A stretch of DNA of 58,677 nucleotides, the filler included, from Jimgerdemannia flammicorona (taxonomy: Eukaryota), in the NCBI GenBank assembly GCA_003990765.1. It is 3 parts of 3 records of this genome, joined end to end, with 100 filler letters (N's around TTAATTAATTAA, not from the genome) between each part and the next. Parts side by side here need not be neighbours in the genome. Positions count along the whole stretch, not along the records: positions 1 to 19,498 come from RBNJ01001927.1; 2 more parts are not named here. One strand, 5' to 3'. A program made the position numbers and the translations under genes. Within the stretch, counting starts at the first letter, position 1. The number at the start of each line of letters is the position of its first letter. Positions 1 to 57,739 of this stretch are shown here, in pieces. Below the pieces are notes generated by a model. That model made no database searches. It saw only the letters and a program-made list of their open reading frames with translations, and was not told where the DNA came from.

Positions 1-501
1 TCGCAAGCTCAAGAACAACAATTACAGTATGTTAACCAACACCACCGAGAAGAAACCTTTGATATTGGAGAAAAGGTTCTACTGGATATCAGAGGATACT
101 GAGTTGACAACCTCAAGCATAGACCATCTACAAAGCTGAACAGCAAGTTCATTGGACTATTTGAAGTCATTGCACAAGTCTCTCCAACCTCCTACAAATT
201 GGTACTACTGGATACCATTAAGATTCACCCAGTCTTTAATGTTCAACATCTCAAGTGATACAATGAGAATAATGACAAGCTATTTCCAAACTGGACCACC
301 AAACCATCTGCACCTGTCATTATTAATGATCAAGAAGAGTATGAAGTTGAACAAATCCTTAACAAATGTAGCAACAAGAGCCACCCTGAGTATCTTGTCA
401 AATGGAAAGGTTATCTGATCCATGATACAATCTGGGAACCCAAGACCAATCTCCAGAATACTACTGACCTAGTTCAGGAATATGATTCCTTGAACAACTA
501 G
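1..501 (+). pseudogene. pol: Gypsy family A copy A1: integrase C-terminus and chromodomain (degenerate; element runs off the window start)
   Basis: Reads FIGLFEV..KIHPVFNVQHLK, then EEYEVEQILNK..EYLVKWKGY..HDTIWEP (chromodomain); closely matches ~32640-33140. Confidence 0.9.
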
Positions 502-699
502 AATCAAATACTCCACACCTATCTATACATACTATATATTATCCTCCCAAACATTATAATTATTGCAAACCAAACCAAGAACTCAGCAAAACCAGACAAG
601 AATACTAACTCTCTGGAAAAATGGCAAAACTGAAAGCAAGCCTATTCTCTCTGTACCACTGAACAAAATTAGAAGGCCCCGACAAGGACGTCAAAAGCT

Positions 700-712
700 A
701 AGAAGGGGAGAG
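700..712 (+). other. Polypurine tract of copy A1
   Basis: AAGAAGGGGAGAG one base before the LTR start TGTAAG; same arrangement before the LTRs at 33353 and 35884. Confidence 0.9.
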
Positions 713-713
713 T

Positions 714-2775
714 TGTAAGCACACAACCTCCAAGCCACCATAATTATACATCACCCTCTGAACAAGCCACTGAAATCACATGCGACATCTGAACAAATCT
801 GGAAATCACCTGCTTGATCACAAAGCTGAGTCAAACTGAAGTCACAGCACACAAAGCTGAGTCAATATGAAGTCACAGAATACAAGATTTATACAAATGG
901 AATCTTACCAATCAGGATCAAATGCATATATACCAAGCACTGAGATACATCAAATCAGAGAACCAAAACAAATAACAACTACAACTTCCAAACACACAAA
1001 CATGACCACTGAGATCTACACCCGTATCCACACTGACATTTGGAATACCATTGTCAACCAAGCCACACCCCCTCTGCCCCTCATGAATATCCATAGCCTA
1101 GCATCCCTCTACTTCATGAAAGCCCAATGGAATGCTCTGAACATGCTTAGCAAGGCCCACTGAATCAGACAAATCTCAAGCTACTACCAGATCGGCTACC
1201 TCCTGGAAGACATAATCGAACACCACTATGATACAGACATTACCCAGATGTCTCAACACCAGAAGCTCATTGCCCACAAACATCAAGAACTCTTCTATGA
1301 GTATAGCACCATTATTCCCCGCCTCTGAGTTACCACAGCCAAAATGGTTGCTACTCTGTCCTATGGTCAAATCAATGATATGATACAAGAACTCAACCAC
1401 AAGTACCTTGAGTATGTCAAAACCACAGACAGAACCTTCCACACCCCAATGACCATATCCTGCAAATGCCCCAAGTTGGATATGCCATGAAGGACATCTA
1501 TAATATAATCTACTTCGATGAAGATGAAGCAGAAGACAATGATCCCTCTGATGCCGACATGATCTCTAGCCAAGGATCTCTGCCAACCCTGATCATACCG
1601 CCAACCTTGCCGATGAACTTACAATAATTCATAACAGCATATGAGACTTATTGGGACAATGACCACTGGCACGAATACCAACCCACATTCACTCCCAATT
1701 ACTTCAACTACAATGAAGAGACCGGAGAACACAACCTGTACCTTCAGACAACCCTCGAGATTGAACCAACCACTCTACCACCCGAGTATGAGTGACATGA
1801 ACCACAGCCACTAGCTTACTACAACCCTGCAACTCATAGTGCTATAACCTATAGAAGGTATACAGATAGCGAATCTGATGAAAGTGAAGATGATGTACCC
1901 CTCCTTCACCCACTAACACCTTATCCAGTATATGAGACTGACGATACCATCTTGTGAGATAGAGACGAAGTTCCAATGTATTATTACCTCAGTGAATAAG
2001 GAGAAGTAATCCACGAATCACTCTTCCTAGATGACTACTTCATCAGAGATAATGCAATTGATGGTGATGTCATCGAGGACTACCCAGATAGTGCCTAAAC
2101 CTGTAAATAGCCTAAGCAGTCATAGTATAGTTAGATTAGCCTTGTATGATGTGACTGTGAACTGACTCAGCAGTCAGACGATCTCTTGACATGTCAGATC
2201 ACACTTGTACTACGTAACTGCATTCTGACTCAGCAAAGCACTTAGTGCTACATCCATATCTAGCATAGTCCAGATAGCCCCTCACTAGTATAAATACCCC
2301 CTCCCCTAGACCTCAGAATCTCAGACTCAAATACATAAGAACATTCCTGAACACTTTCCCACAATATCCCTCCACACAACTACTCCTAGTATAGTAATAT
2401 CATGAATAGCGAATAAACCTATTTAATAACCCACAAACCACTCTTAAGTAAATCTACTCTCTGTTAGATCTCACTCCTAACCCTATCACGAAATTTCCTA
2501 ATTGGGTATTGTCTGCAGCAATATGCCAATTCAACTAAGCTGGTCTTAGTTTCTTGAACTTCCTGAAATACAGAAAATCCTGAACATCCAGAACTAGTCC
2601 AAAAAAGAACTTTGGTTGAGACATCAACCCGATCTTGAAATCAATAAGCATAGAGAATATACTCCATATGAAATTGATCTTGACCATAAGAAAACAGTCT
2701 TCCAGAATATCCAGAACTTCTAGAAAACCCTTCTAGAACTACATAATGGCTACCCTAAAAAGTAACTCTCTTACA
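714..2775 (+). repeat. 3' LTR of copy A1 (~2.06 kb)
   Basis: TGTAAG...CTTACA inverted termini; three more copies at 24923, 33353, 35884; TATAAATA 2289-2296 and AATAAA 2412-2417. Confidence 0.93.
1002..2098 (+). pseudogene. LTR-embedded accessory ORF of family A (~365 aa), degenerate
   Basis: ATG ACC ACT GAG to CCA GAT AGT GCC TAA; same ORF in all four LTRs; 1098 nt in one frame in two copies, 1097 nt here. Confidence 0.8.
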
Positions 2776-3639
2776 TTCAGATAGCAGTTAAGAGTAAGAC
2801 TTATAACTATTGCTAAGAATCAAGAGTACAAAATTGTAGAAGCTCACAATATATAAGAAGATAATCAAGAAGACTTAGATAAAAAATCTGAAGACTAGCA
2901 TCAAACATCAGCCTATACTCTATGTTAGATTGAAGATTGTATCTTTGATACCATTATTGATACTGATACTGGAGGATGCCTCATGAGCAAGAAGGCAATT
3001 AACTGCCTAGGCTGAGATATTGAAGAGTCTATCAAGATAGTCTATATCACAGCAGATGATATATGAGCTACCCCTCTTGGCAAAATCTGAGAAGTTCCCA
3101 TCAAGATAGGAGGAGCTATCATCCTGGTAGATGTGATTATTACAAGTGCCACTAACTATGACATCCTCATTGATAACTAATAGCTTCACAAGGCTAAGGC
3201 CATCATTGATCTCAATGCCCAGAAGATACAGATCAACTATAGAGAAAGAAAGGTATGAGTCTCTATCAATGTCCACAAAGGAGTTCTACCAGATATGGAG
3301 AAAGGAGATAAAGAGGACACAGAAGTCTTTATACACTCAGTAAATAAGAACAAGAATAAGAACAAGAATAAGAACAAGACACCCAAGCTCACAGATGAGC
3401 AATGGTACAATAAGATCATTGATGGCTATACCCCTCAAGAAAGATGTCCTCATGGTACTAGGATGTACTGCTCTGAACACCTGAATGACTGCTGGTCCTG
3501 TATCAGTGAAGTCAGAAAAATCTATTAATAGAAGTATGAGCAAGAAGCTGCTGAAGCAAAAAAGAAAGCCAAAGAAGATAACCAGCCCCCAGAGCTACAA
3601 GCTGACAGTAATGATGAGGAGAAACAAGAACCAGACATC

Positions 3640-4055
3640 ACTCTCAAGTTTAAGAAGTTTTACTCCAAAGCTAAAATTCCAGAATATAAGACTAAAGGAG
3701 CCATAGAAATAGATCTTGCTAGCATCCAAGATACTACTCTTGAACCACAGACCATTACTCTACTTAGCACTGGAATTGGAGTCAAGTTGCCAGAGAACTA
3801 TACTGGAATTATCAAGACCAGGAGCAGTCTGGCCAAAAGTGAAATCTCAGTTGAGAGAGGAGTAATTGACCTTGATTACATTGGTGAGATCTTTCTCATA
3901 GTCAGGAATCACAACCCCACCACTCCATTTGAAGTCAAGAAGCATGACAGGATTGGCCAGATACTGATTCATGAAATCAAAAAGCCCAAGATTACTAAAG
4001 CCATTGAACTCATCAAGACTAAGAGAGGAGAATAAGACTTTGGATCTACTGAAAG
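3640..4055 (+). pseudogene. dut: dUTPase domain of family B (between protease and RT)
   Basis: GA.E.DLAS, STGIGVKLPENYTGIIKTRSSLA, GVIDLDYIGEI, DRIGQIL, RGE*DFGST = trimeric dUTPase motifs 1-5. Confidence 0.9.
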
Positions 4056-7000
4056 AGGAGCCTATGCTGCCACCAAGATTATTGAACTTGAGTACAAGAA
4101 TGACAAGGATCAGAATAAGTACACATATACCATTAGAGAAAACCTTCTACTGGAAGAATAACTTCTCAAGATCCTGCACTAGAATGAAGAAGTACTTACT
4201 ACAGACTTCAGAAATATCCACAATCAAAAACTCAAGTACTATTATAAAGTTGACACTGGTAATACCAAGCCTATCTATCAGAAAGTCAGACCTATACTAC
4301 CTGCCTACAGAGAATGGCTGTGAGCAGAACTCAAGGAAATAAAAGAAGCTGAAATTATCAAGTAAGCTATTAGTTCCTAGGCTTCACCTATTGTCCTTCT
4401 CCCAAAGAAAGAAAGCAAGCCTGGAGAGTTTGCTCCAAAACTCTGCATTAACTACAAGAAGCTCAATGTAATTACTAAGAAGGATAGGCAGCCCTTATCA
4501 AATATTCAAGAAATCCTTACCAATCTTAGAAGTGAAGCCAAATACTACACCACCTTGGATCTATTCTCAGACTTCTATCAGATTGGTCTCACTCAAGATA
4601 CCAGTGAGAAATCAGCCTTCATTATACCTGATGCCACCTATATCTACCTATAAATGTCATTTGAAATGTACAATGCACCAGCAAGTTTTCAGCAAATAAT
4701 GAATATAGTCTTCAGCAATGAGATCAGAAAATGGCTCTTTGTCTATATTGATAATGTAATCATCTTCAGCAATACTGTATGGGAACATATCAACCATATA
4801 CAGCTAGCTCTCAAGAAGCTCAAGGAGTATGGCCTCTACATCAAGCCCAAGAAGTATAAGTTTGCAGCTCAGAAAATCACCTACCTAGGACACCTTATCA
4901 ATCAGACTGGAATCCACACAGACTCTATGAAGATTGAGACTGTTGCAACCTACCCAAGACTCAGAACAACTACAGAAGTCCATGCTTTCCTTGGACTAGT
5001 CTCTTACTACAGAAGATTTATCAAAGGATACTCCAACATTGCAGCATCTATCTATGAGCTACTGAAGAAGGAGACCAAATTCAAATAGACTAAGGAATAC
5101 TAAGAAATCTTCAATGAACTCAAGATTAGGTTGACCCAAGCACCCATCCTCAGAAGACCAGATTGGAACCTAGAGTTCATCCTGCAGACAGATATAAGCA
5201 CTATAGAACTTAGAGCAATCCTAGCTTAGAAGAAAGATAGACATAAATATGTCATCTCCTATGCAAACTAAGGTACCTGCAGAGCAGAACAGAACTATAA
5301 GTCATATAAGCTCAAATACTTAGCAGTAGTTTGGGCAGTAGACAAGTTCCACTACTATCTAGCCAGAAAATACTTCACTATTCAAACAGACCATTTCACT
5401 TTTGCCTGGCTATTCCACACTCTGAACTCCAAAAGAATATATGTCAGATGGATCTACAGACTACAAGAGTATGACTGTACTATTAAGCATTACTCAGAAA
5501 GAACCAATACCAATGCTGATACACTCTCAAGGACACTCTGAAATATCTCTATCAAGACTATTCAATATGAATAAGGAGTTATACTATAGATTAATCAACT
5601 ATCTTGGGAAGTGGAAGATGCTCAACCACCTTGAACCCTGGACAATCACCATCATCAACCAGACTTGGAAACAGTTTGAACTAGACAACACTATACTCAG
5701 AAAAGGAAAAAAGCTTGTAATACTCAAACACAATGAAGGAAGTATATAAATAAGGATACTTAGGAGGAACCAACACATATGACAAAGTAAGAAAAACTAT
5801 GTGGTGGCCCAAGATAAAAGAAGACCTGTACCAATTTATCAAAGGGTGTGACAAGTGCCAAAAACAGAAACAAGATCAGCAAGACCAGGTACTGGGTTAT
5901 CAAGTATTGAGCCTATTACCTTCTGCTACATTACAATGGATATCATTGGGCCACTACCAGTAACACTATCAGGAAACTGCTACATTATAGTTATTATAGA
6001 CCTCTTTACCAAATGGATAGAAGCAGGAGCATTACAGGAAGCCAATGCCCTCTCTATAGCCAACTTCCTGTACTGAGAAATTATCTACTACTACAAGACA
6101 CCAAAGCAAATCACCACAGACCATGGTACAGAATTTATCAATGGATTCTATGAGATAATATATCAGAAATACAAGATTCAGCACATCAAGACCACTGCAT
6201 ATCACTCTCAAGGAAATAGACAGACAGAGAGAATTAACAAGACTCTCAAGAACATTGTGAAGATCTCAGATACATATGAAAATTGAGATAATTACCTCCC
6301 AACTGCTCTCTCTGTCTTATGAGATATACAGTCACAGAGTACACACTTTATCTCAAGAAAACTGCTCTTTAGAGAAGAAGATTCTAATGAAACCTCAGCT
6401 ACAAATCTAGATCTAACTTGGAGACAGGTTGACTCAGAAATCCAGAGACTATACCAAATCAAAAAGAAGGCTAAAAATTACATCATCAAGTTACAAGTAC
6501 TGATAAGAAAGAATGCAGAAAAGAATCACAAGACTCTAGAACCCATCCAAATCAGAGAAAAGATCCTACTGTATCAAAATATGATAGAAGCCTCATGGTT
6601 GTAAAAACTAGAGCCCAAATAGAAAGGATTCTTCTATGTGCAAGATATCAAGAGAACTACCTTCTGGCTTAGAAAACTTACAGGGACTATACTGCCTACC
6701 ACAGTATACAGGAATAGACTCAAGAAGTACCATGAACCTATACAAGAGAAGCAAAACATAATGACTACCTGTGAGGTTCTAGTCTACAAATCATAACAGC
6801 ATGTCCTGTGACCAGCAGGCAATCTGTCTGGACTATTCTCTAAGAGATATGGCACTAGCAACTACTCATTTGTAAGACCTTCAAAGCTAGAGGAGTTTGA
6901 ACTGTCAACTGATTAGTTAAGATCAGAATCCAGCCCTTGCTCTATATGAAGAGAGCAACTCTTCACTATCATACCAAAATACATAGAGAAGATGCCAGCC

Positions 7001-7366
7001 TATAAATACTACTTTTCAATCTCCTGTCAGAGGTTATGGGATCAGCAAATTTTTCAGAACTGGATCAATGAATAAGAATGTTTAAGAAGATCCTTATTCA
7101 GGAGAAAGATGTAATAGTGATCTCAGAATGATGACATCAGTATAGAAGACAGCCTTTCCTTACAAGCCACTAGACTAGAGCATAAAAAGATCATACAGCA
7201 TGACTCACCCAGGCTATAAGATGAGCAATAATGACCAACTATGAGTCATTAGGACTACAAGACAGACATCTTGAGAAATATAAAAGAAGGATCAAGGAAC
7301 TACAGTAGCAGCAACTCAACAAGACCCACTAATCCTGAAATAGCTCAAAGATCTATTATAAACAAA

Positions 7367-8173
7367 ATGTCTGCTACCTGCCAAACCTCAAGATCAAAGA
7401 ATCACCAAGACCTCTCAGTCTAGAAAAGGATATTCTAAGACATCCAAAGAGCTATAGAGATCTGTACCACAAGGACTCCTAGTGTCAACTTGGGTACTGG
7501 TGACTCTTATTATTATATTCTCTACTGCCACAAGATGGAAACAAGAATTACCATTGCTATCAAATACCTTCAGATATGGTAAGAATATAAAATAGGAAAC
7601 CTCTTCTACCAGGAATTCCCTCAAGCCAGTCGTCAAGAGCTACAAGATACTACTTCTATAGATATATGTGAAATAAGGATAGCTAAGAAGATTCATCAGA
7701 TCTTCAGGTATATACTATGGTTGATCTCCAACTTGGAGTATACCAGAGTCTCAGACTTCAGAGATCTGTTAGCCTACTATATTAACATACTAGAAGCCAT
7801 AGTAGCTACAGAAGTCTAGTCCACTATCACTCTTAATAGTGATGAGATAAAAGAGTTCTGGTATCCCATTCTCCAGGACAACCCAGATCAGTTCCTGCAA
7901 GGATTAATCTCAGTATTCCAAAGCCTCAGAATCCAGGTTAGACCTCCCTAAGACCCCACATTTGTTTCTTATTTTGTAGAAGAGAACCTCATAGATTGGA
8001 GAGCCCCTGATTTCCCTATCACCAAATATAATGATGTCATTGGCAATGATATCATCCTATATGATATATGTGAAATGTACAACCTACACAATGAGACTGA
8101 AACATTTGTAGATCTCATCTCCTTTAGTAATGATGAGGATGAAATCTCTATGGTCTTGAATATTTTACTCTAA
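7367..8173 (+). pseudogene. Family B accessory ORF downstream of integrase (268 codons)
   Basis: One frame from ATG TCT GCT ACC TGC to TAA 8171-8173 with scattered transition-type stops; aligns with the family C ORF at 13088-13915. Confidence 0.8.
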
Positions 8174-8639
8174 GTCCCTTAGTTATACTGAATTATGCCA
8201 GTATTCTTTTCCTATATAATAGCTATTCCTCTACTGATATTCTGACCTTATGTAACTCAGAATTATTTCAATATCCTGAACCTATGCAACCATCTATGCT
8301 GATACTGAAACTTGGCAGTTTTCTATATTCTAGCATTTTATTTGATTATTGGAATTTATATTTAGCTTTATATCTTAGCAACTATTGAATTATATATCTC
8401 TCTTATTTCTCTCAAAATAAAGTTAGTTCCAGTTCACTTATACTCAATTCCACATAAGTAATCTAAGAGATAACAAGACAGTTTAAAAATAAGAAGTTTG
8501 AGAACTATAAGATCTTGGGAAGATATTCCAATAAGAACTTGCTTATAACAAACTTAAGTTAGTCTAAGAGATATATTTTGAAGAGAATCTGATATATTTG
8601 AAGGACTCAGCAACTACTATAATAATATATATTGCATTT

Positions 8640-9860
8640 GTCAAAATTAATAACTTAACTATATATTGATTGATTTTATTAAGCTATTGAGATCTCATTT
8701 TAGTGAAAATCTTACTGATACCTTTGGGAGATGTATTTAAGATTTTGATATATAGATAATAATATATAAAGAGTAAGTGAGCCTTTTAAAAGAAGTTTTT
8801 AAAAAAATCAGATTTTTAAAAAAGATTAGGTTTTTGAAAAGATCAGATTTTCAAAAAAAGTTCAAAAGATCAGTTTTTTGAAAAAGATTGGGTTTTTGAA
8901 AAATAGTTATCTTACATTTTGAATTATTGATTTTTTACTTAACAACAATAATAATTGAAATAGAGTTCAATCATAGTCTCAACTATCAGTCAATACAACA
9001 TATATACTATATAGCTTATATTATCAATCTGGCCATTCAAGCCTTTTTAATCTGTCTGAAGGCTGATAATAATGAAAAAATAAATTTAAGTCTCTGAATA
9101 AGTATTATTAAGATTGGGTCATCATTATAGTATTTTGAGAGATTTACTATACAATATAAAGTCTATAGAATCAACAATCTAAAGAAACTTATTTTGGACA
9201 TTAAAACTTAGTGAAACTCAATATATTTGATAATTAAATAAGCTATTAAATTATTGAAGATAATTATATTTAATTATATTTAATTTATTAATTAAGTATA
9301 TAGATAATATAGGTCTATAATTATATCTAAATCTAATCTAATAAATTAATTTTTATTAATAGCTCTTAAATTCAATAGTTATAGCTAATAAAAATTTGTG
9401 ACAATATACTATTAGAGATTATACTTGATAGTTACTAAAAGATATCATTTTAGTATTAAAGAGTTTTTAATATATAATAGATCTTGCAACTTGGTAAAAA
9501 TATTCAACAATTTATTCTGCTATTCTAATTTATAACCTTTTACTAGATATATTAGAGAATAATGACAAAGTATTTCAAAATCATATAGCAGAACCAGAAG
9601 AAACTAGAGAGCTGAATACTCTCATTTAATAGATACTAATAGTAGCTATTGATAAGTTGAAGAAATACTATTCAATGACTGATTTATTATATTGGTACTG
9701 GTAAGTAAATATTTCAAAATTTATTTTATTTTTTAAATGAAAACCAGTTCTTAATTTCAGACTTAAACTATAATATTATTCAAACTATTGGAAAACTATT
9801 TAGATTGAAGTAGCTGAAACAACTATTTGTATAGTCTATAAGTAAATATAGATATATAAT
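8640..9860 (+). pseudogene. hAT transposase remnant, very AT-rich
   Basis: IAYIINLAIQAFL (CxxH region), LILDIKT**NSIYLII (LDVxTRWNST), SAILIYNLLLDILE, AIDKLKKYYS; parallels the transposase at 49.3-51.8 kb. Confidence 0.7.
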
Positions 9861-10758
9861 AAGATATAGAGTTAGATATAGATACTGAATTATTGACAAA
9901 ATGAATACAGAGCTCTATATTAGTATTCTTTATAAAGAATTATAAGAAACTATTGAATTTTATAATATATATAAAATATATATATATATTAGCAAAATAA
10001 TAACTCTAAGCATATATCTAAAATGGCAAAAAGTTAACTTAAAGATAATTAATTTCAACTACTGAATTGGCCAACACAATCATCTGATTATAACTCTATT
10101 GAATATTTTGAAGAATAAGCTGAATATTTATTAGAAAATACCCAAAAAAAAATTAAAGAGCTTTAAAAGAGAGTGAGAGAAGAATGAAATAAAATTTCAA
10201 AGGATATTTGTATTAAATTAATAAAAAGTACACCTAGGAGAGTTGTAGCTATATTTAAAGTAAAGAGTAATTATATAAAATATTAAATAATAAAATAAAT
10301 TAGCTAAATTAATAATAAGAGATAAAAATAGACCAATGATTAATTTGACTTTAAATAGTAATAACTATTATTACATAATAAGTACTGAGTTCTTCAAATA
10401 TATCAGATTCTCTTTAAGATATATCTCTTAGACTAACTATAAGTTTATTATAAGTAAGTTTTTATTGAAGTATCTTCCCAAGATCTTATAGTCCTCAAAC
10501 TTCTTATCTTTAAACTGTCTTGTTATCTCTTAGATTGCTTGTATAGAATTGAGTGTAAGTAAACTTAACTGACTTTATTTCAAAAGAAATAAGAGAGGTA
10601 TTTATATAAAATATAATTCAATAGTTACTAAGATATAAAGCTGAATATAAATTCCAATAACTAAATAAAATACTGAAATATAGAAAACTTCAGTTGTAAG
10701 TACAAATTCGAGTATCTGTATAAATAGTTGTATAAGTTCAAAATGCTAGTAGATTTCA

Positions 10759-12228
10759 TTTTTTTTTTTTTTTTTTTTTTTTTTTTCTTTTTTTTTTTTT
10801 TTCTATAGACTATTGCCTTATTTATTAACTATCTATAATATGTCACATATCCTCATACAATATCAGTAGCCCCATTCCACCCCAATCTCAACCCACCTTC
10901 ACTCTCACCCAGCCTTGTATTTTTAGGGTGTAAGTTGTGACCTCACTGCCCAAATAACTAGATCCTCCTACCTGGTCTGCCCCATCCAGTAGATATGGGT
11001 TGTGAGCCCCAACCACCTCAAGTACTTGGCATCTAGTGTACCTGACCTACCCCTATTAGTGCCTCCTGTCTTGCCCATCTAGCCCATCTTGTCCATCTTG
11101 CCCACTCATGTTGCCCATATTACCTGTGCTGCTATCTTGCCATCTTGCCCATCTTGCCCATCTTGCCCATCTTGCCCATCTTGCCTGTCTTGCCTGCCCA
11201 TATTGCCTATGTCCCATGTTGCCCATGTTGCCCATGTTGCCTGTATTGCCCATTTTGCCCATTTTGCCCATCTTGCCCATATCGCCTGTCTTGCCTGTCT
11301 TACCCACCTGTGTTGCTCGTATTGCCCATGTTGCCATCTTGCTGTCTTGCCCATCTTGCCCATCTTGCCCATCTTGCCTGTCTTGCCCACCCGTATTGCC
11401 CATGTTGCCCATATTGCCTATGTTGCCCATATTGCCCATATTGTCCGTATTACCTGTGTTGTCCATTTTGCCCGTTTTGCCCATCTTGCCTATGTCGCCT
11501 GTCTTGCCGTCTGCCCATCTTGCCCATATTGCCCATCTTACCCATCTTGCCCATCTTGTCCATCTTGCCCATCTTGCCCACCCATGTTACCCATATTGCC
11601 TGTGTTGCCCATATTGCCTATATTGCTCATGTTGCCTGTCCATATTGCCTGTATTGCCTGTGTTGCCTGCCCATGTTGCCTGTATTGCCTGTGTTGCCTG
11701 TTTTGTCTGTTTTGCCTATTTTGCCCATCTTGCCCATGTCGCCTATCTTGTCATCTGCCCATCTTACCCATGTCACCCATCTTGCCATCTTACCATCTTG
11801 CCATCTTACTGTCTTGCCCATCTTGCCTGTCTTGCCTGTCTTGCCCATCTTGCCCATCTTGCCCATCTTGCCCATCTTACCCATCTTACCCATCTTGCCC
11901 ATCTTGTCTATCTTGCTCATGTCACCTGTCTTGTTGTCTTGCCATCTTGCCCAACTTGCCTGTCTTGCCCATCTTGCCCATCTTACCCATCTTGCCCACC
12001 CGTGTTGCCCATGTTGCCCATATTGCCCATGTTGCCCACCTGTATTGCCCATGTTACCCATGTTGCCCACCCATATTGCCTGTGTTGCCCATGTTGCCCG
12101 TTTTGTCCATTTTGCCCATGTCACCTGTCTTGCCATCTGCCCATCTTGTCCATTTCACCCATCTTGCCATCTTGCCATCTTGCCCATCTTGCCTGCCTGT
12201 GTTGTCTGTGTTGCCTATGTTGCCCCTG
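10759..12228 (-). mobile_element. Non-LTR retroposed insertion: poly(A) tail, ~250 bp LINE-like 3' end and a minisatellite
   Basis: Poly-T 10759-10802; exact 14-bp duplication GCTAGTAGATTTCA at 10745-10758 and 12229-12242. Confidence 0.8.
11065..12228. repeat. Degenerate 9-bp minisatellite (TTGCCCATC/TTGCCCATG/TTGCCTGTC)n
   Basis: Directly visible tandem array of ~1.16 kb. Confidence 0.95.
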
Positions 12229-12305: not shown

Positions 12306-13076
12306 TGTAATAACTCTCACTTTTACCCCTCTCTTATCCTTTGGATAATCAGGGAAGTGGACTATTACTTAGGGACTTAGTATACAATGTATACCAAGAA
12401 GCCTTCAGTTTGAGGAAGTACTTGCTTATAAGTAAGTGTAGCAGCAGTGCCTTCTGTTTCAAAGGTCTTTCTCTTATGCCCTATTTTGAGGGTCTTGTTC
12501 TTTGCTGTGCACAGACTGAATTCACCTTGGAATTCAGGTTTAATGGGTTTACTTAAGTCTTTGGGGATTTATATACCAGTCTCAGTTCTGGCAGAAGTTA
12601 GCTAGGCTTCTAGAGTTTAGTCAGAAATACTAGAGTTACTTAGATGTCATTACTAAGACTCAGGGGAATGTGTGTGTGCGAGGAGGGGACTTGATTCTTA
12701 TATTAAGGACTGAACTAAAACTACTTTATTTCAGATGGAAAACTAGAGGGTATTTATACAAGTTGGTCCATGATTTCTGACTAAGTATGAGTGACTAATT
12801 TGGTAACTATAATGAGGTTTATGATCATGACCTTTTGTCAGGTGGTTTTTGGTAAAAACAACTTTGTGATCAGGATCTCAATTACTAGACAATGATCAGT
12901 TGCTATGGCAACTGTTGCTGCAGCACCAATTGTTGGGGATAAGCTGGATATCATTTTTTATATCATTTTGCATTGTTCATAATTCATATGTTGTACTTTG
13001 CTTATATGGTGATGTTATTGCCACCAGGTCACGTGATCACTCATCTCGTCACATCTTATCTGTTTATTCTATTACA
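12306..13076 (-). repeat. 3' LTR of family C (771 bp)
   Basis: TGTAATA...TATTACA inverted termini; minus-strand PPT AAGAAGGGAAGGA at 13077-13089; minus-strand TATAAATA (~12755) and AATAAA (~12727); only one copy in the window. Confidence 0.8.
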
Positions 13077-13087
13077 TCCTTCCCTTC

Positions 13088-13915
13088 TTAGAAATCAACA
13101 TCCTCATTGATTCAGAAATTGAGAACCAGGAGAGAGAAAAATGGGGAATCCACCTCTGGGTTATTGCTATCTTCTTCAGTGATAGGGGGGATGGTTGCTG
13201 ATGGCTCACTATCCAGGGTAGAGAAGTCAATGAGGTCTGCAAATGGTTCTTATATGGGGGTGGGTACTGGTGTAGGGGTTCTCCATCTGATGTGGTTGGG
13301 GCCATCCAGGTAGGGTTCTTGGTCCTTATGCTGGGGGATATCTATTCAGATGGGCAGTCCTTTAAAGAGATCAGAGAGGCCTTGGAGCCATTGGTCTGAG
13401 TTGTCATTTAGGAGGGGGCTCCAGTGAGGCTCGATGTCAGTAGACTTGAGGGCAATCCAGGAATTGGCTTCTTGGGCAACCTTGATTTCTAGAGCATCAA
13501 CCTTAGGGAAAGAGAGATTCTGAAAATCCTTCAGTTGTATATAGTTGAGATTGAGGATTGCAAAGGAGACATGGCATATGATTTGATAAACTTTCTTAGC
13601 AAGTTTCTGCTCATGTCTATCCAAGTGGGTCCAGTCAGAGACTTAGTCAGTAGGGAGGCCATTTTTATGTTGGAGGAGCTGGTGGCCAATTTCATATTCA
13701 TGTCAGATCTCTAGGTGGCTGGTGGTAAGGTAGGTCCTTTCAATGAGTTCATAGCAGTCAAGGACATACTGTCCTAGGTCTGGGCTGGAGAGGTTAAGGG
13801 CCTCTGAGCAGTGGTTTCTTCCTTAGATAGTGACCTGGATGTGTCCAAAGAGGTGGTCAACTTGGCTTGGGAGGGGCTGGCTACAGCAGACAGATTGGCG
13901 GCAGGTAGCAGGCAT
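13088..13915 (-). pseudogene. Family C accessory ORF between pol and PPT (275 codons)
   Basis: One frame from MPATCRQ to a TAA overlapping the PPT; includes ORF-track 13346..13624; TATAAATA ~65 bp upstream. Confidence 0.8.
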
Positions 13916-14582
13916 TCCTGGTTTGTCTTTTCTTTATAGAGAGAGGGGGATAAGAGTTGCAGGGTATTCTTGCCTTGGATATTTATACTTATTCACCTAT
14001 CTCGTGTGATCTTCCTTTGGATACACTTTCTGGTAAAATGTATGACCTGTTGCTATAAGTGGAACATGTGCTAGTTATATGGGAAAATCCTGATTTCAAA
14101 GATATCATCACTTGTAGTTATGGTTACACAAGGTTAGCAGGTCTTGGTCCTCTTTTTTTTTATCTGGTTGGCACATTTGCGAGGACTGGCCATCCTTGTC
14201 TAGGGCAAGGGCTCCCATTGTCATGACTGGGGGTTTGAACCTCTCGGAAATAGACTTTCTTATAATCTGAGGCAATTCCTAGTAACAATATCTGTCATAT
14301 GGATGGACTTAGACTGGTTTTGACATTGTTGGCTTTCCTAAGTTCCACATGAAGCATCTGTCATCATCCAGTAGAGATGACACAGATGACATGAAATGGA
14401 GTTATTCAAATGTGTTTTGCTATACTATGCTAGATGGTTCTTTTACTCGAGTATCTTCTGGTTGGCTATTCATAGTGTTCCTTTTTCTTGCCACAATGTT
14501 TGGTATTATATGTTTGAGATAAGATATATAGTATCCTTCTTCTCACTGTATGCTCCAATATTTAGAGCTGTAGTTCCTTCCT

Positions 14583-17500
14583 TTAGTAGGGAGTGAGTAT
14601 TTCTACATAGTTCTGGAGGGCTTCACATGTATTCTTCAGAGCTTCTTCTTTTTCCCAGATGGTGTCATGGGTGGGGTAACCCTTCCACTTGATCAGAAAA
14701 AACTGCTTGACTGTTTTGGGGTATTTGCAGACCTTGTGGTCCAGTACTTCCTCAATTTCGAATTTCTCATGATCATTGATCCAAATTGGGGATGGTGGTG
14801 GAACTGTACACTCGGAGAATAGATTCTCATGGTAGTCCACTAATTGGCTGATATGGAATACTGGGTGTACTCAGATATTGTTGGGGAGTTGCAACTTATA
14901 GTTGACTTTGCATGATCTTGTATGGTCCAATTCTTCTAGCATGGAGTTTCTTGGCTGATTGTTATACTAGAGTGTCTGGGTGGAGGTGGTCTGTTCTAAG
15001 CATAACCATGTCACCAATATTGTAGGAGGCTTCTCTTCACTTCAAGTTTGCATACTTGGTCTGATAGTCTTGTACTTCTATGAGAGCATCTCTTGTCATT
15101 CACATAAGATCAGAAATGGTCTCCATCAGATCTTAGGCTGCTGGAACTACTGATTTCACAGTAGTACTTGGGGTCCTTGGGTGTTGACCATGGTTCAGAA
15201 AGAATGGAGTCTTCTTTGTAGAGGTTTGCTAACTGTTGTTATAGGCAAACTTGGTATAGGCTAGGTACTTGTCTCAATCATTTTGCTTGTAACAGTAAAA
15301 GATGCTAAGCATCTGTTTAAGAGTTCTGTTAGTTTACTTGGTTTGGCCATCAGTCTGAGGGTGGTAGGCAGTAGAGAACTTCAGCTTGGAGAGAAAAATG
15401 CCTTCCAGAAGTTGCTTGTGAACTTGGCATCTCAGTCAGATACAATAGAACTAGGTATACCATATAGCCTAAATACTTGATTGAGGAAAATCTCAGCAAT
15501 CTCTGGTGCTGTAGCAGTGATCTTGGTTGGTGCAAAATAGGCTTACTTACTTAGGCAGTCCATGAATACCACAATGGCATTCCATCCTACCTTGGTTTTG
15601 GGGAGTTGGACAATGAAGTCCATTGCAATCTAATCCCAGTTATGGCTCAGGATAGGTAAGAGTTGCAGGAGTCCTGCTGGTAGCTTGTTACCACTTTTAA
15701 ATCTTTAGCACATCTTGCATGAGACCACAAAGTCTTTGATGTCCTTGGTCATCTTTGGCCAGTAAAACTCTCTTGAGAGGAGGTTGTAGGTCTTTTCGAA
15801 ACCAAAATGTCCTGCCACAGGAGTGTCATGGAGTTCCTGCATGATCTTGAGTCACAGAGTATCATTGTTGAATACAACTACTCTATTATGGTCTCTGTAG
15901 ATAAGTCCATTATGGTAAGTGAATCTCTTGACCATTTGCCTCATGGGTTCTAGGACCTCAGCTTCTGGGTCTTGGCAGAATTGAAGGAATTTTGCCAGGG
16001 GGCTATCTTGCTGGTAGTCATCCTTGATCATTTGGGTAAGATCTCCAATTATCTTGATCATGAAGATAAGTTCATCTTCCATATACCTGGAGAAACCATC
16101 AGCCACATGGTTGGTTTTGCCTGGGATATACTTGATTTCCATATCGAAGTTAGCAATGATTTCCATCCAGCAGACTTGTCTGTGGGTCAGCATAGACTGT
16201 GTGTAAATATACCGTAGTACATGGTGATCAGTATAGGCCACAAATGGCTGTCCTAGGAGAAAATGGTGCCATTCCTGAAGTGAAGTAACAATGGCCAGGA
16301 GTTCTTTCTCATGGGTAGTGTACTGGGTCTCAGCTGGCTTGAGCTTCTGGGAAAAGTAGGCTACTGAGCAGTCTTCTTGGCTGAGTACTGCTCTAATAGC
16401 AATGTCAGAGGCATCTGTGGTCAGGGTGAATGGTCTGGTAGAGTCAGGTGCAATTAGCACTGGAGCCTCAGTAAGGAGTCTCTTGAGATGGTCTATAGCC
16501 AGAGTGCATTCAGGGGTCTATTCAGTTTTGATGTTCACTCCTTTGCAGGCCAGGCTGGTCAGTGGGGCTGCAATAGCAGAGTATCCTTGAATAAACCTTC
16601 AGTAATACCTGGCAATACCCAGAAAGTACTGGAGTAGCTTGAGGGTTGTGGGGATAGAGATATCCTTAAGAGCTGATATCTTTCAGAGGTCTACATTGAT
16701 ACCTTCAGCAGAGATGATGTGTCCTAGATATTCAATCTGGTCCTGATAGAACTTGCACTTGCTCATCTTGGTATAGAGCTGGTGTTCTTACAGAAGGGTC
16801 AGTACCTGTCTGAGGTGGGTGTAGTGTAGCTCCACTGTCTCACTGTAGATTAGTATATCATCAATATATATAAGAACACAGATGTTGAGGAGTGGTCCAA
16901 AGATGTCATTCATCAGATACTGGAATGTTGCTGGTGTATTAGTCAATTCAAAAGACATGACTCAGAACTGATAGTATCTAAACTATGTTCAGAAAGCTGT
17001 CTTCTCAATGTCCTTTTCATCAATGAGAATCTAGTGATAGCTATTTCACAAGTCTAGTAGGGAAAAGGTCTTGGCCTTGAAGATTTGGTATAGCAACTTG
17101 TCAATTCTAGGTAAGGCATACTGGTTCTTGATGGTGATCTTGTTGAGGGCCCTGTATTTAATACATATTTGCAGAGAGCCATTCTTCTTCTTGACAAATA
17201 GAATAGGGGCTCCAAATGGAGAGCAGCTGAGTTCAATGTATTCTTGGGCCAGTAGTTTGGTCAACTCATCCTTGAGGGTCTTGAGTTCAGGTTAGGCCAG
17301 TTGGTAGATACTTTTGTATGTGGGTTCAGATCCTGGAATAAGATCAATTCCATGTTGGATTTGGTACTTGGGTGGGAGTCCTTGGGGGTCTTGGAATACA
17401 TCTTGGAATTCTTTGAACAGTTCTTGAGCTTCTGTTGGGATTGGGCTACTTGTAGCTTCAGTGACTTCTTGTACTATATAGATGAAATAGGTGTTTCCCT

Positions 17501-18000
17501 TTTTTCAAAAGAGTCTCTTCATTTGAATGGTAGAGATGATTTTGATTTCTTGATGGTTGGTATCTTCCTGGGGTGTCAGGGTGATCTTTCTGCCTTCATG
17601 GGTCAGATTAACCTCATTGGTTCTCTAGTTGATGTCTGGGTTATGCTGGGTCAACTAGGTTTTTTCTAAGATAATGTCTTATCCTGGGAGGTCTATAATG
17701 CTGAAGTCCAACTTCTCTTGATATTTGCCAATCTTGAGCAGGAGATCCTCACAGATCTTGGTCAATGGTGTAGTTTTTCCATCACCAAAGATAACACTTC
17801 TTTTCTCAGTGGCTGGTCTGCTTCGGGCTCCAATTCTCTTAGTGGTCTTTATGCTGATATAGTTTCCAGTAGCACTGCTATCAAGCAAGATATTGACATT
17901 CTGTCTGTGGACTTGGCCTGTGAACTTGATGCAACTGTCCTCCTTCTTGATGGTGTTGAGCTCTTCATCTTCATTGTTATTGTCCCAATTGCTGTCAGTC
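14583..18000 (-). pseudogene. pol: Family C pol (PR-RT-RNaseH-IN-chromodomain)
   Basis: ORF-track fragments 17679..17888, 17046..17264, 15852..16460, 14583..14840 carry the canonical motifs. Confidence 0.92.
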
Positions 18001-18259
18001 TCCTCTAAGTCAGTTTCTCCCCATCCTTCATAAGGAGAGTTGTCTTGTTTGGGTTCTTCAGTCTATTGAGCTTGGCATTTCTTGGATTGAATTTTGAAAA
18101 CTTTGGAGAGGCATATATAGCATTCACCAACATGTTCCATGCAGTATATTCGAATAGAATGAGGGCATCATCTATATGGTGCATAACCATCTGCAATTCT
18201 CTTATACCAGTTTTCATCATCTTCCTTCATAGTAGTGACCTTTTGACTGGGAGATTTGT

Positions 18260-18680
18260 TGGTTGATCCAAACTCTTTCTTGCCATAGTCTGTCTGGAAG
18301 AGTTCAGAGACTTCTTCAATGGTGAGATCTTGATGGATTTCTTCAATGATTGCTTGGACAATTCTTTGGCCTATTTTGACTTCAAATGATGTGTCTCCAA
18401 AATTTTGCAGGATAATATGGATTTCGCCAGTAAATTCTTGATCAACTACTCCTCCTTTTAGCCCAATATTGAACTCTTTGACTAGGCTGCTTTGCTCAGC
18501 AAGGTGGATGTATATACCTTTGGGAGCTTGCATTGCAATCTCTGTTCACACTGTAGTATTGGTACTTGGTGGAATTGTGAGGTCTTGGCTGCTGTAGAGG
18601 TCATATCCAGCATTGGTTGGGTGGGCCTTAGTGGGGATGGTAGCCTTGTACCATATCTTCTGTACTTTGATGACATTCTT
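18260..18680 (-). pseudogene. dut: dUTPase domain of family C (between gag knuckle and protease)
   Basis: NAGYDLYS, QSSLV, GGVVDQEFTGEI, GQRIVQAI, YGKKEFGST. Confidence 0.9.
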
Positions 18681-19350
18681 GGGGTTCTTTTTTCCTGGAC
18701 CTTCTCCAATAACCGTAATGTTCTGATTACTAGGTTCACCTGCTCTGTTCTTCTTCTCAGGGCATCTGAATGAGATGTATCCTGCCTTTTTGCAGATGAA
18801 GCACAATCCTTTTTCATGGAGCTGCTTCTTTTCATCCTCAGTGGGAGGTCTGGGTCCTCTGGGGTTTCGCTGGTTCCTTTGATCATTCCTTTGATTATAT
18901 CTTTGGTCATTCCTTTGATCATATCTTTTGGTAGGATTCTTCCTATCTTAGTTATCCTTCTTGTATTCTTTATTTTGTAGGGCTTATGCAGCAAGGATTT
19001 TACAGGCTCTTCTTTGTACTTGAGCAAAACACCATGAGTAGTGGGGGCATCCTTGGGGAAGATCTTATTCCTTGATCTTCTGGGTGAGCCAGTCTGGTAG
19101 GGCTGCAAACAGATAGTTGGCTCTGGTACCATTGATGGCCAAGTTGTTCTCCTGGTATATAAGTCCAACAGTTTTGAGGTAAGCATCCATTCTGGTGGCA
19201 AAGGTCTCTAGATCCTCTTCACCATTCTTGTGGAACTTCATCTGGGAGAGCTTGTTCCAAGTTTCTTATATATAGGCTGTATTTTGGAATTTAGTCAGTA
19301 GCAAGGCCTTGAGTCCTGGGCCTGCTTTATAGTCATCCCAATCTGATCTA

Positions 19351-19498
19351 TTTTTTTTTTTTTTTTTATAGTCACTTGGACTCCGCCTTTATTACCAGTC
19401 TATGAATAAATATATATCATTCCAACCCACTATCCAATCCCCACTGGGGGGCCCCTCCCTACTTTCTCACGAATGAAAATCACCCTTTCTCCAACTAC
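19351..19498 (-). mobile_element. LINE 3' end with poly(A), interrupting family C gag
   Basis: Poly-T 19351-19367 then ATAGTCACTTGG; minus-strand AATAAA just upstream of the tail; same terminus at 26351-26395. Confidence 0.7.
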
Positions 19499-19598
19499 NN
19501 NNNNNNNNNNNNNNNNNNNNNNNNNNNNNNNNNNNNNNNNNNTTAATTAATTAANNNNNNNNNNNNNNNNNNNNNNNNNNNNNNNNNNNNNNNNNNNN
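19499..19598. other. Scaffold gap with artificial TTAATTAATTAA spacer
   Basis: N44-TTAATTAATTAA-N44; identical structure at 39091-39190. Confidence 0.97.
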
Positions 19599-19980: not shown

Positions 19981-21114
19981 TCTGTATCAGTACCTCAAGT
20001 AGTACCAGTAATACCACTACCAGCAGTCCAACTGCCTCCAGTAAACAATATGGCAAACCAACAGATTCTAGACCTCATAGCCCAGGTAGCCATAATGGCA
20101 GCAACCATTACTGTCTTAGCTGAACAGACCTGACCTACCAAAAATCTGAGCCTACCTACCTTCAATAGTACTGCACAAGAAGTCCAAAGCTTCATTAGTG
20201 TAGTTGACACCAACTTCGAAGCCAATCAATAGACTAATGAGCAAGTTGCTGACCACATTCTGACAAACAATCAAGACCACACTCTGGAACAACTCTTTGC
20301 TACCACTACAGCCTATGTCTACTGAGTTGTTACATTCTTCTGAGGACCTGCCGAAGAATGGTGGTGAACCTTTCCTGAAAAACCCCTTATATGGGATACC
20401 TGACCTACAGTAGTTGCTCAGAATGCAGCAAACAATGCCCCAGAATATGGAGCCCATCCTGCAGCCCCTGGACTCAAACAACTCATAATTGCCCAATACC
20501 ACAGTGAAACCATGATTGCTGAATCCCGAGTAAAACTCTGCAACCTCAAATTCGATATATATAGCAAAGAAGAATTTGAAACCTTCTATACAAAACTCGA
20601 GTCACTCCTGAACACTGTTGGCCTAGGATACATTGCCAATGATGAAGCATGAAATGATACAAGAGCAGATCACTTATTCGATGCCCTGCCCAAATGGCTT
20701 ACTAGAAAAATCTGAGAACAAGGCCGCCCAGTTGGTTGTGACTACCAACAATGGTGCCTGGCAAGAATCAAGACTATGGTCAAGCGAATCCTAACAGCTG
20801 GACCAATTCTGCCTCGAAGACAATGCAACAACAAGGAAAAGACTTGGACCAAGAAAGAAGAACCCAAGTATGAAGCATCCTGAGTTCCCTTTACATCCAC
20901 CTCTTGAATACCTAGAAATCATGAACCCACCCAGCCAAGTACCTTTAAGAAACTTACTGAAGGCAAAAGGAATGAACTTTGAAGAAGTGGAGCATGCTTC
21001 TATTGCCGAAAGACAGGACACATGGCCAGTGCCTGCCCTAACCAAAAACCCTGAACAGCAACAAGAGCAACTGTTACCACTCTGCACCACCTCAACAACC
21101 TGACCACCAGAATA

Positions 21115-21525
21115 CTAGACTTTGTGAAGTTAAGACAAACTGCTAAGGCCCCAATCAAAGAAAGCCCAAAAGCAGCTGGATATGATCTGTATGCAGCCGA
21201 AGAAGCTACAGTCTCCAACTGAGAAGTCAAACAAGTCTATATAGGAATCAGCATCCAGATCCCTGAAGGACATGTTGAAAGAATATGCTGTTGCAGCAGC
21301 CTAATATTGAAAGGACTGTCAGTAGAAGGAGGAGTTATCGATGAAGATTATACAGGTGAAATTATTGTCCTCATCCGAAACCATAGTTGGACACTCTTCA
21401 AGATCCCTATTGAGTTCTGCATTACCCAGATCCTATTTGAAAAAATCAAGTCAACCCTGACAATCAAGGAAGTCCCTGAACTACTGCCTACCATCTGAGG
21501 ATCCAAAGGATTTGGCTCATCAAAC
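21115..21525 (+). pseudogene. dut: dUTPase domain of copy A2
   Basis: AAGYDLYAAE, GGVIDEDYTGEI, ITQIL, *GSKGFGSS; directly after the gag CCHC knuckle. Confidence 0.9.
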
Positions 21526-21739
21526 AAGGCCCCAACTCAACCTACCATGAGCAAAGAAGAACAATTCTACAAAAAGATCGAAGATAGATATGTACCAAGT
21601 GGCTGATGCCCCCATGGCATTGGAATATACTCTTCCCGAATGATTGATGATTGCTTCTCTTGTATCAATGAACTGGCTCAAAGAAGAACCAATAGAAGGA
21701 AAGCTCCTACAACTAAAATCACCACCATTGGATCAGACA

Positions 21740-24700: not shown

Positions 24701-24922
24701 CAGTTACAGTATGTTAACCAATACTGCTGAGAAGAAATCTTTGATATTGGGGAAAAAGTTCTACTAGACATCAGAGGATACCGAGTTGACAACCTCAAGC
24801 ACAGACCATCTATAAAACTGAACAGTAAGTTTATTGGACCATTTGAAGTTATTGCATAAGTCTCTCTAACCTCCTACAAATTGGTACTACCAGATACCAT
24901 TAAGATTCACCTAGTCTTTAAT
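21740..24922 (+). pseudogene. pol: pol of copy A2 (PR-RT-RNaseH-IN)
   Basis: [59 protein letters not shown]. Confidence 0.95.
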
Positions 24923-25210
24923 TGTAAGTGCACAACCTCTAAGCCACCGAAATTACATGTCACCCTCTGAACAAGCCACTGAAATCTCACATGACCTCTG
25001 AACAAATCCGGAAATCACCTGCTTGATCATGAAGCTGAGTCAAACCGAAGTCACAGCGCACAAAGCTGAGTCAATACGAAGTCACAGAACACAAGATTTA
25101 CACAAACAGAATCTTACCAATCAGGACCAAATGCATATATACTGAACACTGAGACATGTTGAATCAGAGAACCAAAACAAATAATAACCACAACTTTCAA
25201 ACACACAAAC

Positions 25211-26308: not shown

Positions 26309-26347
26309 ACCCATAAATAGCCTAGCAGTCATAGTATAGTTAGATTA

Positions 26348-26350
<3 letters not shown>

Positions 26351-26388
<38 letters not shown>

Positions 26389-26395
26389 GTCACTT
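26351..26395 (-). mobile_element. Extremely 5'-truncated LINE insertion
   Basis: T35-ATAGTCACTT flanked by 14-bp duplication TAGTTAGATTAGCC (26337-26350, 26396-26409); absent from the other three LTRs. Confidence 0.85.
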
Positions 26396-27047: not shown

Positions 27048-27056
27048 TGGTAGCAG
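27048..27056 (+). other. Primer binding site, probably initiator tRNA-Met
   Basis: TGGTAGCAG three bases after the LTR end; complementary to the CUGCUACCA 3' end found in many eukaryotic tRNAi-Met. Confidence 0.7.
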
Positions 27057-29000: not shown

Positions 29001-29069
29001 CGAAAACCACGAACAGCAACATGAGCAACTGTTATCACTCTGCACCACCTCAACAATCTGACCACCAGA

Positions 29070-29480: not shown

Positions 29481-29699
29481 AACAAGGCCCCAGTCCAACC
29501 TACTATGAGCAAAGAAGAATAATTCTACAAGAAGATTGAAGATGGATATGTACCAAGTGGCTGATGCCCTCATAGTATTGGAATGTACTCTTTCCAAATG
29601 ATTGATGATTGCTTCTCTTGTATCAATGAACTGGCTCAAAGAAGAACTAACAGAAGAAAAGCTCAAACAACTGAAATCACCACCATTGGAACAGACAAA

Positions 29700-57725: not shown

Positions 57726-57739
57726 AATATCTTGGAAAC

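Follow-up and report, generated by a model that had tools for sequence, protein, structure and literature searches.

Remains of a probable protein-coding gene in the U3 region of a dUTPase-bearing Ty3/gypsy chromovirus from Jimgerdemannia flammicorona

Introduction

The long terminal repeats (LTRs) of retroelements are usually treated as pure control DNA, and protein genes in their U3 region are familiar from a few retroviruses, for example sag of mouse mammary tumor virus (MMTV) and the overlap of nef with the LTR in human immunodeficiency virus (HIV). MMTV Sag is a superantigen and a membrane glycoprotein, the gene of which lies in U3 of a betaretrovirus LTR, and both sag and nef are chiefly expressed through spliced subgenomic RNA from the 5' LTR promoter. 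The LTRs of Cassandra, for their part, hold a 5S RNA gene. Here we describe an LTR of 2,062 bp, belonging to a dUTPase-bearing Ty3/gypsy chromovirus of Jimgerdemannia flammicorona, in which a broken reading frame of 365 codons lies ahead of the main TATA box, and we argue that this frame was probably once a gene. The analysis covered 58,677 nucleotides of assembly GCA_003990765.1 (three parts of three records, joined end to end with filler letters), referred to below as the window.

Several described systems resemble this arrangement in part. The open reading frame (ORF) of the MMTV 3' LTR is spoken of in the accessible portion of PMC2118998, and accessory ORFs captured downstream of pol by LTR retrotransposons are treated in the portion of the Arkhipova review at hand (PMC6431247). 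As far as the excerpted text of PMC3485330 goes, the rice elements Retrosat2, RIRE3 and RIRE8 have LTRs of >3 kb and a fast-evolving orphan ORF0 of unknown function, and the available sections of PMC2864245 describe dUTPase-bearing elements (PosPlaTy3 of Postia placenta, others of Phanerochaete, and Tmt1 of Tuber) in which the position of dUTPase in pol varies; an 'additional ORF of unknown function' is noted in one of its figure legends. MicroRNAs encoded in foamy-virus LTRs are reported in the accessible part of PMC7104284. The sections seen of the truffle genome paper name chromovirus clades and no LTR gene. Phrases such as 'LTR ORF' in Talaromyces and 'LTRs encode' in Blumeria were rejected as parallels, both referring to ordinary polyprotein ORFs. 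A search of open-access full text, with figures and supplements outside its scope, returned no protein gene inside the LTR of an LTR retrotransposon, the only cases being retroviral ones and the LTR microRNAs.

Results

The repeat is the LTR of a Ty3/gypsy chromovirus

Self-comparison of the window revealed a 2,062-bp repeat in four copies, here termed A1 to A4, which are 88-90% identical (pairwise differences at 9.5-12.5% of sites) and have the termini TGTAAG...CTTACA. The copies and the features that define the element, family A, are as follows.

700-712, plus strand: polypurine tract AAGAAGGGGAGAG, 1 base upstream of the start of LTR A1; the same pol-end sequence stands ahead of LTR A3
714-2775, plus strand: LTR A1, a 3' LTR, the element of which runs past the left window edge
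1002-2098, plus strand: broken 365-codon frame of A1, with 6 point stops on codon alignment and one 1-bp deletion
2289-2296, plus strand: main TATAAATA box, identical in 4/4 copies, which would place the U3/R border at about 2320
2412-2417, plus strand: AATAAA poly(A) signal, identical in 4/4 copies, which would place the R/U5 border at about 2435
24923-27044, plus strand: LTR A2, with the frame at 25211-26308 (5 point stops, no indel)
27048-27059, plus strand: primer-binding-like site TGGTAGCAGTAG, 3 bp past the end of LTR A2
27045-33352, plus strand: internal region of 6.3 kb encoding gag, dUTPase, protease, reverse transcriptase, RNase H, integrase, SH3 and chromodomain, with stops and frameshifts (from Pfam and three-frame reading)
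33353-35414, plus strand: LTR A3, with the frame at 33641-34737 (4 point stops and one 1-bp deletion)
35884-37933, plus strand: LTR A4, with the frame at 36161-37258 (8 point stops, no indel), preceded by just the last 469 bp of internal sequence

LTRs A2 and A3 flank the internal region, which Pfam matched to RVT_1 (1.4e-30), dUTPase (1.8e-28), Integrase_H2C2 (1.7e-17) and Chromo (8.8e-11), the domains following one another in the order RVT_1, RT_RNaseH, Integrase_H2C2, rve, SH3_Tf2-1 and Chromo; the rve match, at 25.3 bits, falls under the curated cut-off of 32.6. The element thus has the gag-pol order with a C-terminal chromodomain between direct repeats that defines a Ty3/gypsy chromovirus (Metaviridae), and its repeats have inverted TG...CA ends, a polypurine tract at the 3' LTR and a putative primer-binding site after the 5' LTR. 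Given these ends, the polypurine tract, the primer-binding-like site, the domain-bearing internal region and the four copies, the repeat is a true LTR of a dUTPase-bearing chromovirus, which bears out a preliminary description of this DNA that had called 714-2775 a 2-kb LTR. A1 can be recognized as a 3' LTR from the sequence ahead of it, since bases 1-713 match the end of family A pol (32641-33352). There is no solo LTR among the four copies.

The family A sequences at 19988-37933 form an array with shared LTRs, which reads as a 5'-cut internal region, A2, a full internal region, A3, the last 469 bp of an internal region, and A4; the family A copy ahead of A2 lacks 472 bp (equivalent to 241-713), precisely those that are found by themselves ahead of A4. 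LTR A2 also carries a T-rich insertion of ~59 bp just 3' of the frame (26353-26395 of the window, with a run of >30 T) that is not in A1, A3 or A4. Among contigs over 1-8000, TGTAAG is preceded by unrelated sequence at loose end X17 (763), which fits the left border of an LTR.

The frame lies in U3 and was open in the ancestor

The frame is found in 4/4 LTR copies at the coordinates listed above, ahead of the main TATA box and AATAAA, just as the preliminary description had reported it. It lies wholly between the polypurine tract (700-712) and the main TATA box (2289), so that its assignment to U3 is supported by position, the U3/R border itself being placed from the TATA box rather than mapped.

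Read straight with the standard code, the frames contain 13 (A1), 5 (A2), 14 (A3) and 8 (A4) internal stops, which on codon alignment become 6, 5, 4 and 8, A1 and A3 each having a 1-bp deletion; these two deletions are the only indels across 4 x 1,098 bp. We judged openness by codon-by-codon comparison of the four copies and not by a consensus. The stops fall at 12 positions over the four copies, and at each of these one or more of the other copies keeps a sense codon from which the stop differs by a single transition (CGA to TGA, CAA to TAA, CAG to TAG, and TGG to TGA or TAG). As to fixed stops, which would have been fatal to the gene proposed in the preliminary description, none is common to 4/4 copies; a majority vote over the copies would retain stops at codons 95, 109 and 333, at each of which one copy keeps CAA or CGA, and decay runs overwhelmingly from C to T. 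Alternative genetic codes (TGA read as Trp, and table 6, the ciliate code) fail to open the frame, and the stops are therefore damage rather than recoding. Compared in this manner, the copies show that the frame was open in their ancestor. Of the earlier claim that U3 contains a complete ~365-aa gene, then, the U3 position and a once-open frame are retained, and the word complete is not, since 0/4 copies are open.

The copies have decayed almost entirely by transitions. Each pair of copies differs by 193-242 transitions and 3-18 transversions, an excess of 10- to 60-fold among the family A copies, and at sites with a single deviating copy we counted 144 C>T and 74 G>A changes compared with 8 transversions of all kinds. 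The base following a single-copy C>T change was A in 66 cases, C in 54, G in 13 and T in 11, and CpG stands at ~0.2-0.3 of expectation in the family A LTR copies. This pattern fits the killing of the copies by transition hypermutation resembling repeat-induced point mutation, or by deamination of methylated cytosine. Single-copy changes in the frame are distributed over the codon positions in line with their G+C content, which is what neutral decay after insertion would produce. The 2:2 site patterns among the four copies are not tree-like (36, 27 and 19), and a codon-position test for past selection among them was abandoned, being swamped by the hypermutation.

Open relatives and codon usage point to a former gene

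Relatives of the U3 protein were sought among 1.84 billion representative proteins, and two were found, P0002 and P0003, each the sole member of its cluster. P0002 (247 aa, from a 998-bp contig) matches residues 115-365 with 162/251 residues identical (65%) and 82% similar; it contains no stop and has the same C-terminus as the U3 protein. P0003 (128 aa, from a 1,180-bp contig) is 86% identical over residues 1-128. Together the two have sense residues at 12/12 stop positions of the window copies. Among proteins of 30-69 aa there was no shorter relative.

The frame also resembles the coding sequence of the element that carries it. Scored with the in-frame codon usage of pol, it gave +0.27 (A2) and +0.15 (A4) bits per codon, whereas the shifted sense frames gave -0.57 to -0.73, and its base composition at each codon position matches that of pol. 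Moreover, the frame in A2 and A4 has 5-8 stops, as against 16-36 in the other two sense frames. Given the stop pattern, the open relatives, the pol-like codon usage and the scarcity of stops relative to the shifted frames, we conclude from sequence comparison that the frame was a real gene in U3, and that it is dead in this window.

The ~1.6 kb of U3 from the polypurine tract to the TATA box at 2289 would accordingly have encoded an acidic protein of 365 residues, largely disordered and with a helical N-terminal third. A low-confidence model has helices over the first ~140 residues; the remainder, which is acidic and contains much Tyr, Pro and Thr, is apparently disordered. A PDB sequence search with the U3 protein gave no match better than E 0.5, and the Atlas model of P0002 (predicted local distance difference test, pLDDT, 0.39) was without a usable neighbor. 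As judged by these comparisons the U3 protein is a member of no described family, and our guess is that it was an accessory factor serving the element.

Sister families carry an accessory gene ahead of the polypurine tract

Two further dUTPase-gypsy families in the window carry an ORF after pol, which agrees with the earlier remark that an accessory gene precedes the polypurine tract in another family.

13112-13915, minus strand: accessory ORF of the second dUTPase-gypsy family, after the chromodomain, ~268 codons, broken, with a distant likeness to the N-terminal region of the U3 protein
12306-13089, minus strand: polypurine tract AAGAAGGGAAGGA (13089-13077) followed by a 771-bp LTR, TGTAAT...ATTACA, of the second family; the LTR is without a long frame
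7367-8173, plus strand: accessory ORF of the third dUTPase-gypsy family (element 2776-8173), ~268 codons, broken

These two ORFs are 33% identical to each other. The one on the minus strand ends 22 bp ahead of AAGAAGGGAAGGA and TGTAAT, a junction near-identical to the polypurine tract and LTR start of family A, and in family A only ~200 bp, with no ORF within, separate the chromodomain from the polypurine tract. Six open relatives of the accessory ORF were found in metagenome data (P0004-P0009), and the three that were scanned, P0004-P0006, have no Pfam match. By sequence, the accessory ORF family of the sister elements is an undescribed retrotransposon protein family in its own right. Four of the six open relatives share an LN(F/I)LL C-terminus.

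The similarity between the U3 protein and the accessory family is faint. With blastp, the U3 protein and the minus-strand accessory ORF were 25% identical over 95 residues (E 0.005). With hhalign and a profile of eight accessory sequences the score was 29.6 (E 0.0027) over 117 colinear columns covering residues 7-126 of the U3 protein, so that the match is confined to its N-terminal third. Column shuffles of the accessory alignment (n=150) scored 14.6 on average (sd 2.7, maximum 23.3), none of the 150 reaching 29.6, and the reversed alignment scored 14.7. It is probable, on this evidence, that the N-terminal domain of the U3 protein shares its origin with the sister accessory gene.

The simplest route from one layout to the other can be proposed as follows. 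In the ancestral state the accessory gene would have stood between pol and the polypurine tract, as in the sister families; the plus-strand priming site would then have moved upstream of the gene, making the gene part of U3 and lengthening the LTR by ~1.3 kb. With the polypurine tract upstream of it, the gene would be copied into both LTRs by reverse transcription. Later, the four copies in the window would have been killed by transition hypermutation. We place homology with the accessory gene of the sister families, together with such a shift of the priming site, just on the likely side. The preliminary suggestion that the LTR grew by absorbing an accessory gene gains strength from the layout of pol, ORF and polypurine tract and from the hhalign score that 0/150 shuffles reached; the homology itself stays unproven.

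All three gypsy families of the window (2776-8173, plus strand; 12306-19400, minus strand; 19988-33352, plus strand) encode a dUTPase, in differing positions: it precedes the protease in family A and in the minus-strand element and follows it in the element at 2776-8173. Directly after LTR A1 (2776-2800) stands CAGATAGCAGT, one transition from the primer-binding-like site after A2, and the protease of the third family starts ~150 bp beyond it, with no gag; the junction at 2776 may mark a recombinant or gag-deleted element using a family A LTR.

Two promoter-like modules lie within the LTR

Sequences resembling regulatory elements precede both the frame and the main TATA box.

819-885, plus strand: 31-bp tandem repeat, 2.2 copies, each unit containing GCTGAGTCA (825-833 and 856-864) and TGAAGTCA
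926-932, plus strand: TATA-like ATATATA, ~70 bp upstream of the ATG, with no ATG between
2163-2171 and 2226-2234, plus strand: two TGACTCAGC sites, 63 bp apart, in orientation opposite to the upstream pair

TGA(C/G)TCA is the core of the basic leucine zipper (bZIP) site bound by AP-1 and Gcn4. The preliminary description had placed two TGAGTCA sites (827-833 and 858-864) and a TATA-like run near 926 ahead of the ORF, and all are present; each TGAGTCA lies within a GCTGAGTCA, and both 9-mers are intact in 4/4 copies. The bZIP-like site that it had noted at 2163, ahead of the main TATA box, is likewise there, and it had missed the second TGACTCAGC at 2226-2234. The run GCATATATAC at 924-933 is identical in 4/4 copies, and the ATG of the frame has A at -3. 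Downstream, the exact 9-mer is kept at 4/8 site-copies, in A1 and A2 only; the core is kept at 8/8 upstream and 5/8 downstream site-copies. The two modules share one layout, namely two sites, ~60 bp, and a TATA box.

In the window as a whole we counted 12 occurrences of GCTGAGTCA or its complement, every one of them in a family A LTR, compared with an expectation of 0.62, and 0/100 shuffles reach 12. Since the LTR copies share ancestry, these 12 matches represent 3-4 ancestral sites and not 12 independent ones. The site at 2226 in A1 and A2 may moreover be a by-product of C-to-T decay, because A3 and A4 read CGACTCAGC at this position and the decay is biased toward that change.

Among sequencing runs, none recorded as RNA contains the stretch. 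In contig data over 1-8000, the summed contig depth was highest in all four runs over ~2137-2937, the last third of the LTR, contig depth being no measure of expression. In two small runs, guessed to be RNA, contig depth was strikingly high over ~2137-2937 and low over the frame, an observation that cannot show starts or rank the parts of the LTR.

Other features of the window

Imperfect short-period repeats occupy ~1.2 kb at 11065-12225; on either strand they give rise to long open frames that are artificial and in which Leu, Pro, Ala, His and Cys abound. The stretches 8000-10700 and 56000-58000 are very AT-rich (G+C 0.22-0.23) and may be heavily decayed repeats; the former contains an inverted repeat (8317-8651 versus 10339-10689). 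A stop-free stretch at 50788-51216 (plus strand) contains a putative motif of the hAT transposase type. Two pairs of N runs of 44 bases, with 12 bases between the members of a pair, lie at 19499-19598 and 39091-39190, and as one of these pairs sits at the junction, the border between the minus-strand element and family A is unreadable.

Discussion

Taken as a whole, the account that we consider fairly probable is that the frame was a U3 gene of a dUTPase chromovirus, acquired by a shift of the priming site and later killed. The opposing view of the frame itself, that it was never a gene of the element and represents either a captured piece of a host gene or a chance open frame in A/C-rich, stop-poor sequence, might draw on the lack of a known domain or a confident fold, on the existence of just two relatives, and on the capture of extra DNA for which LTR retrotransposons are known (PMC6431247, in the portion at hand). 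We nevertheless regard it as very improbable, for a relative that is 65% identical is open for 247 codons, 82% similar and the same at its C-terminus, the codon usage of the frame matches that of the element's own pol, every stop is a single transition, and the match to the accessory gene of the sister elements is above chance.

With regard to transcription, it is possible, though somewhat short of likely, that transcription of the gene was driven by an upstream module of its own (the two GCTGAGTCA sites, the TATA-like run at 926 and a start near 955) and ended at the AATAAA of the LTR, in which case any single LTR would yield a predicted LTR-internal mRNA of ~1.5 kb, from ~955 to the AATAAA at 2412. 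The preliminary description had supposed that solo LTRs could express the gene, possibly under stress control. It is also conceivable, if rather doubtful, that the gene was expressed just through a spliced subgenomic RNA, which was initiated by the main 5' LTR promoter and read the copy in the 3' LTR, the upstream GCTGAGTCA repeat being an enhancer. The related ORF of the sister families stands after pol without an LTR promoter of its own, which leaves these families either subgenomic RNA or an internal promoter as the means of expression, a means that family A could have retained; far-upstream tandem factor sites in U3 are typical of retroviral LTR enhancers, and, as a match to TATA, ATATATA at 926 is inferior to TATAAATA at 2289. 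Against this view stand the conserved TATA-like box 70 bp ahead of the ATG, with no ATG between and A at -3, and the upstream module with the spacing (sites, ~60 bp, TATA) of the main promoter. That the TATA-like run at 926 was instead the genomic promoter, giving an R of ~1.5 kb (~955-2435) and making the frame, within R, the first cistron of the genomic RNA, seems to us quite improbable. The upstream promoter-like module is present in 4/4 copies, and an R of ~2 kb has been proposed for rice Retrosat2 (PMC3485330, in the text available), but the stronger TATAAATA lies ~120 bp before AATAAA, which is the usual short-R spacing, the poly(A) signal of the 5' LTR would be far from the cap and would need to be bypassed to make genomic RNA, and strand transfer across 1.5 kb of R would be unusual. 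The most far-reaching proposal builds on transcription from the upstream module: each LTR would have been a free-standing cassette of bZIP promoter, 365-codon gene and poly(A) signal, created by a jump of the priming site, so that 5', 3' and solo LTRs alike expressed a protein serving the element, for example in anti-silencing. In this full form we consider it unlikely.

A number of results weigh against the reading of the frame as a U3 gene derived from the accessory gene. No copy in the window is open (0/4), so no working gene is shown here, and the protein family is tiny, with exactly two relatives, both on metagenome contigs of ~1 kb in which placement inside an LTR is not visible. Two scans of metagenome contigs for the DNA of these relatives gave 38 and 25 pattern matches, none of which was confirmed by tblastn, and with no such DNA recovered the ratio of nonsynonymous to synonymous substitution rates was not computable. 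On the opposite strand, the frame antisense to the ORF is likewise poor in stops (7-9), and its codon score is slightly above zero. With E allowed up to 1, Pfam matched 0 families to the U3 protein, P0002 and P0003, and AlphaFold gave no confident fold (pLDDT 31.7 with the U3 protein, 39.8 with the accessory family). Concerning origin, a tblastn search of the window with the U3 protein matched the four LTR copies and nothing else; hhalign gave its eight-sequence match a probability of just 11%, and with a two-sequence accessory profile the score was 22.2, the E value 0.03 and the probability 1.7%. The LTRs of family A and the second family have no alignment beyond the TATA box, for which reason the shift of the priming site is untraceable at the DNA level. 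Finally, with CGACTCAGC at 2226 in A3 and A4, the downstream site that A1 and A2 have at this position may be a product of decay.

Were the cassette proposal true, family A would provide, within open-access text, the first case beyond the retroviruses of a protein-coding gene borne by the LTR of a retrotransposon. The window holds both layouts in related families, with the gene before the polypurine tract and with the gene after it, and side by side they would provide a concrete route by which LTRs may grow, accessory-gene dosage may be doubled and a gene may persist in solo LTRs after its element is gone. Such LTR genes would escape gene callers and repeat maskers, or else hundreds of LTR copies would be labeled by them as orphan host genes. 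As the copies here are dead, the value of the present data lies in the anatomy and in a pointer to where live copies may be sought.

The closest parallel is MMTV sag. Both systems have a frame of ~320-365 codons that is confined to the interval from the polypurine tract to the main TATA box and hence is present in both LTRs. The U3 protein, however, stands outside the Sag family, with 0 Pfam families at E up to 1, and comes from a non-vertebrate host; its element, a chromovirus, has no env, and the product is acidic and by prediction mostly disordered, whereas Sag is a membrane glycoprotein. The accessory ORFs found downstream of pol in other LTR retrotransposons are similar in that an extra gene is carried by the element, and the layout of pol, ORF and polypurine tract is that of the two sister families; in family A, by contrast, the polypurine tract lies upstream of the gene, which makes it an LTR gene, present twice per element and in any solo LTR.

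Among elements with long LTRs, Retrosat2, RIRE3 and RIRE8 of rice are likewise gypsy elements with unusually long LTRs and an extra ORF, but their ORF0, between the 5' LTR and gag-pol, is external to the LTR, and they belong to a plant and are unrelated in sequence. The dUTPase-bearing chromoviruses of fungi, among which family A has its place, share with it the combination of gypsy pol, chromodomain and dUTPase, the last of which is present in all three families of the window; they differ in that the available sections of PMC2864245 mention no gene inside an LTR. Non-coding LTR units, such as the foamy-virus microRNAs and the 5S gene of Cassandra, resemble the family A arrangement as a second, self-contained expressed unit besides the element promoter, but they are small RNA genes of polymerase III, whereas the family A unit is a protein-coding frame of 1.1 kb with putative signals of the polymerase II type.

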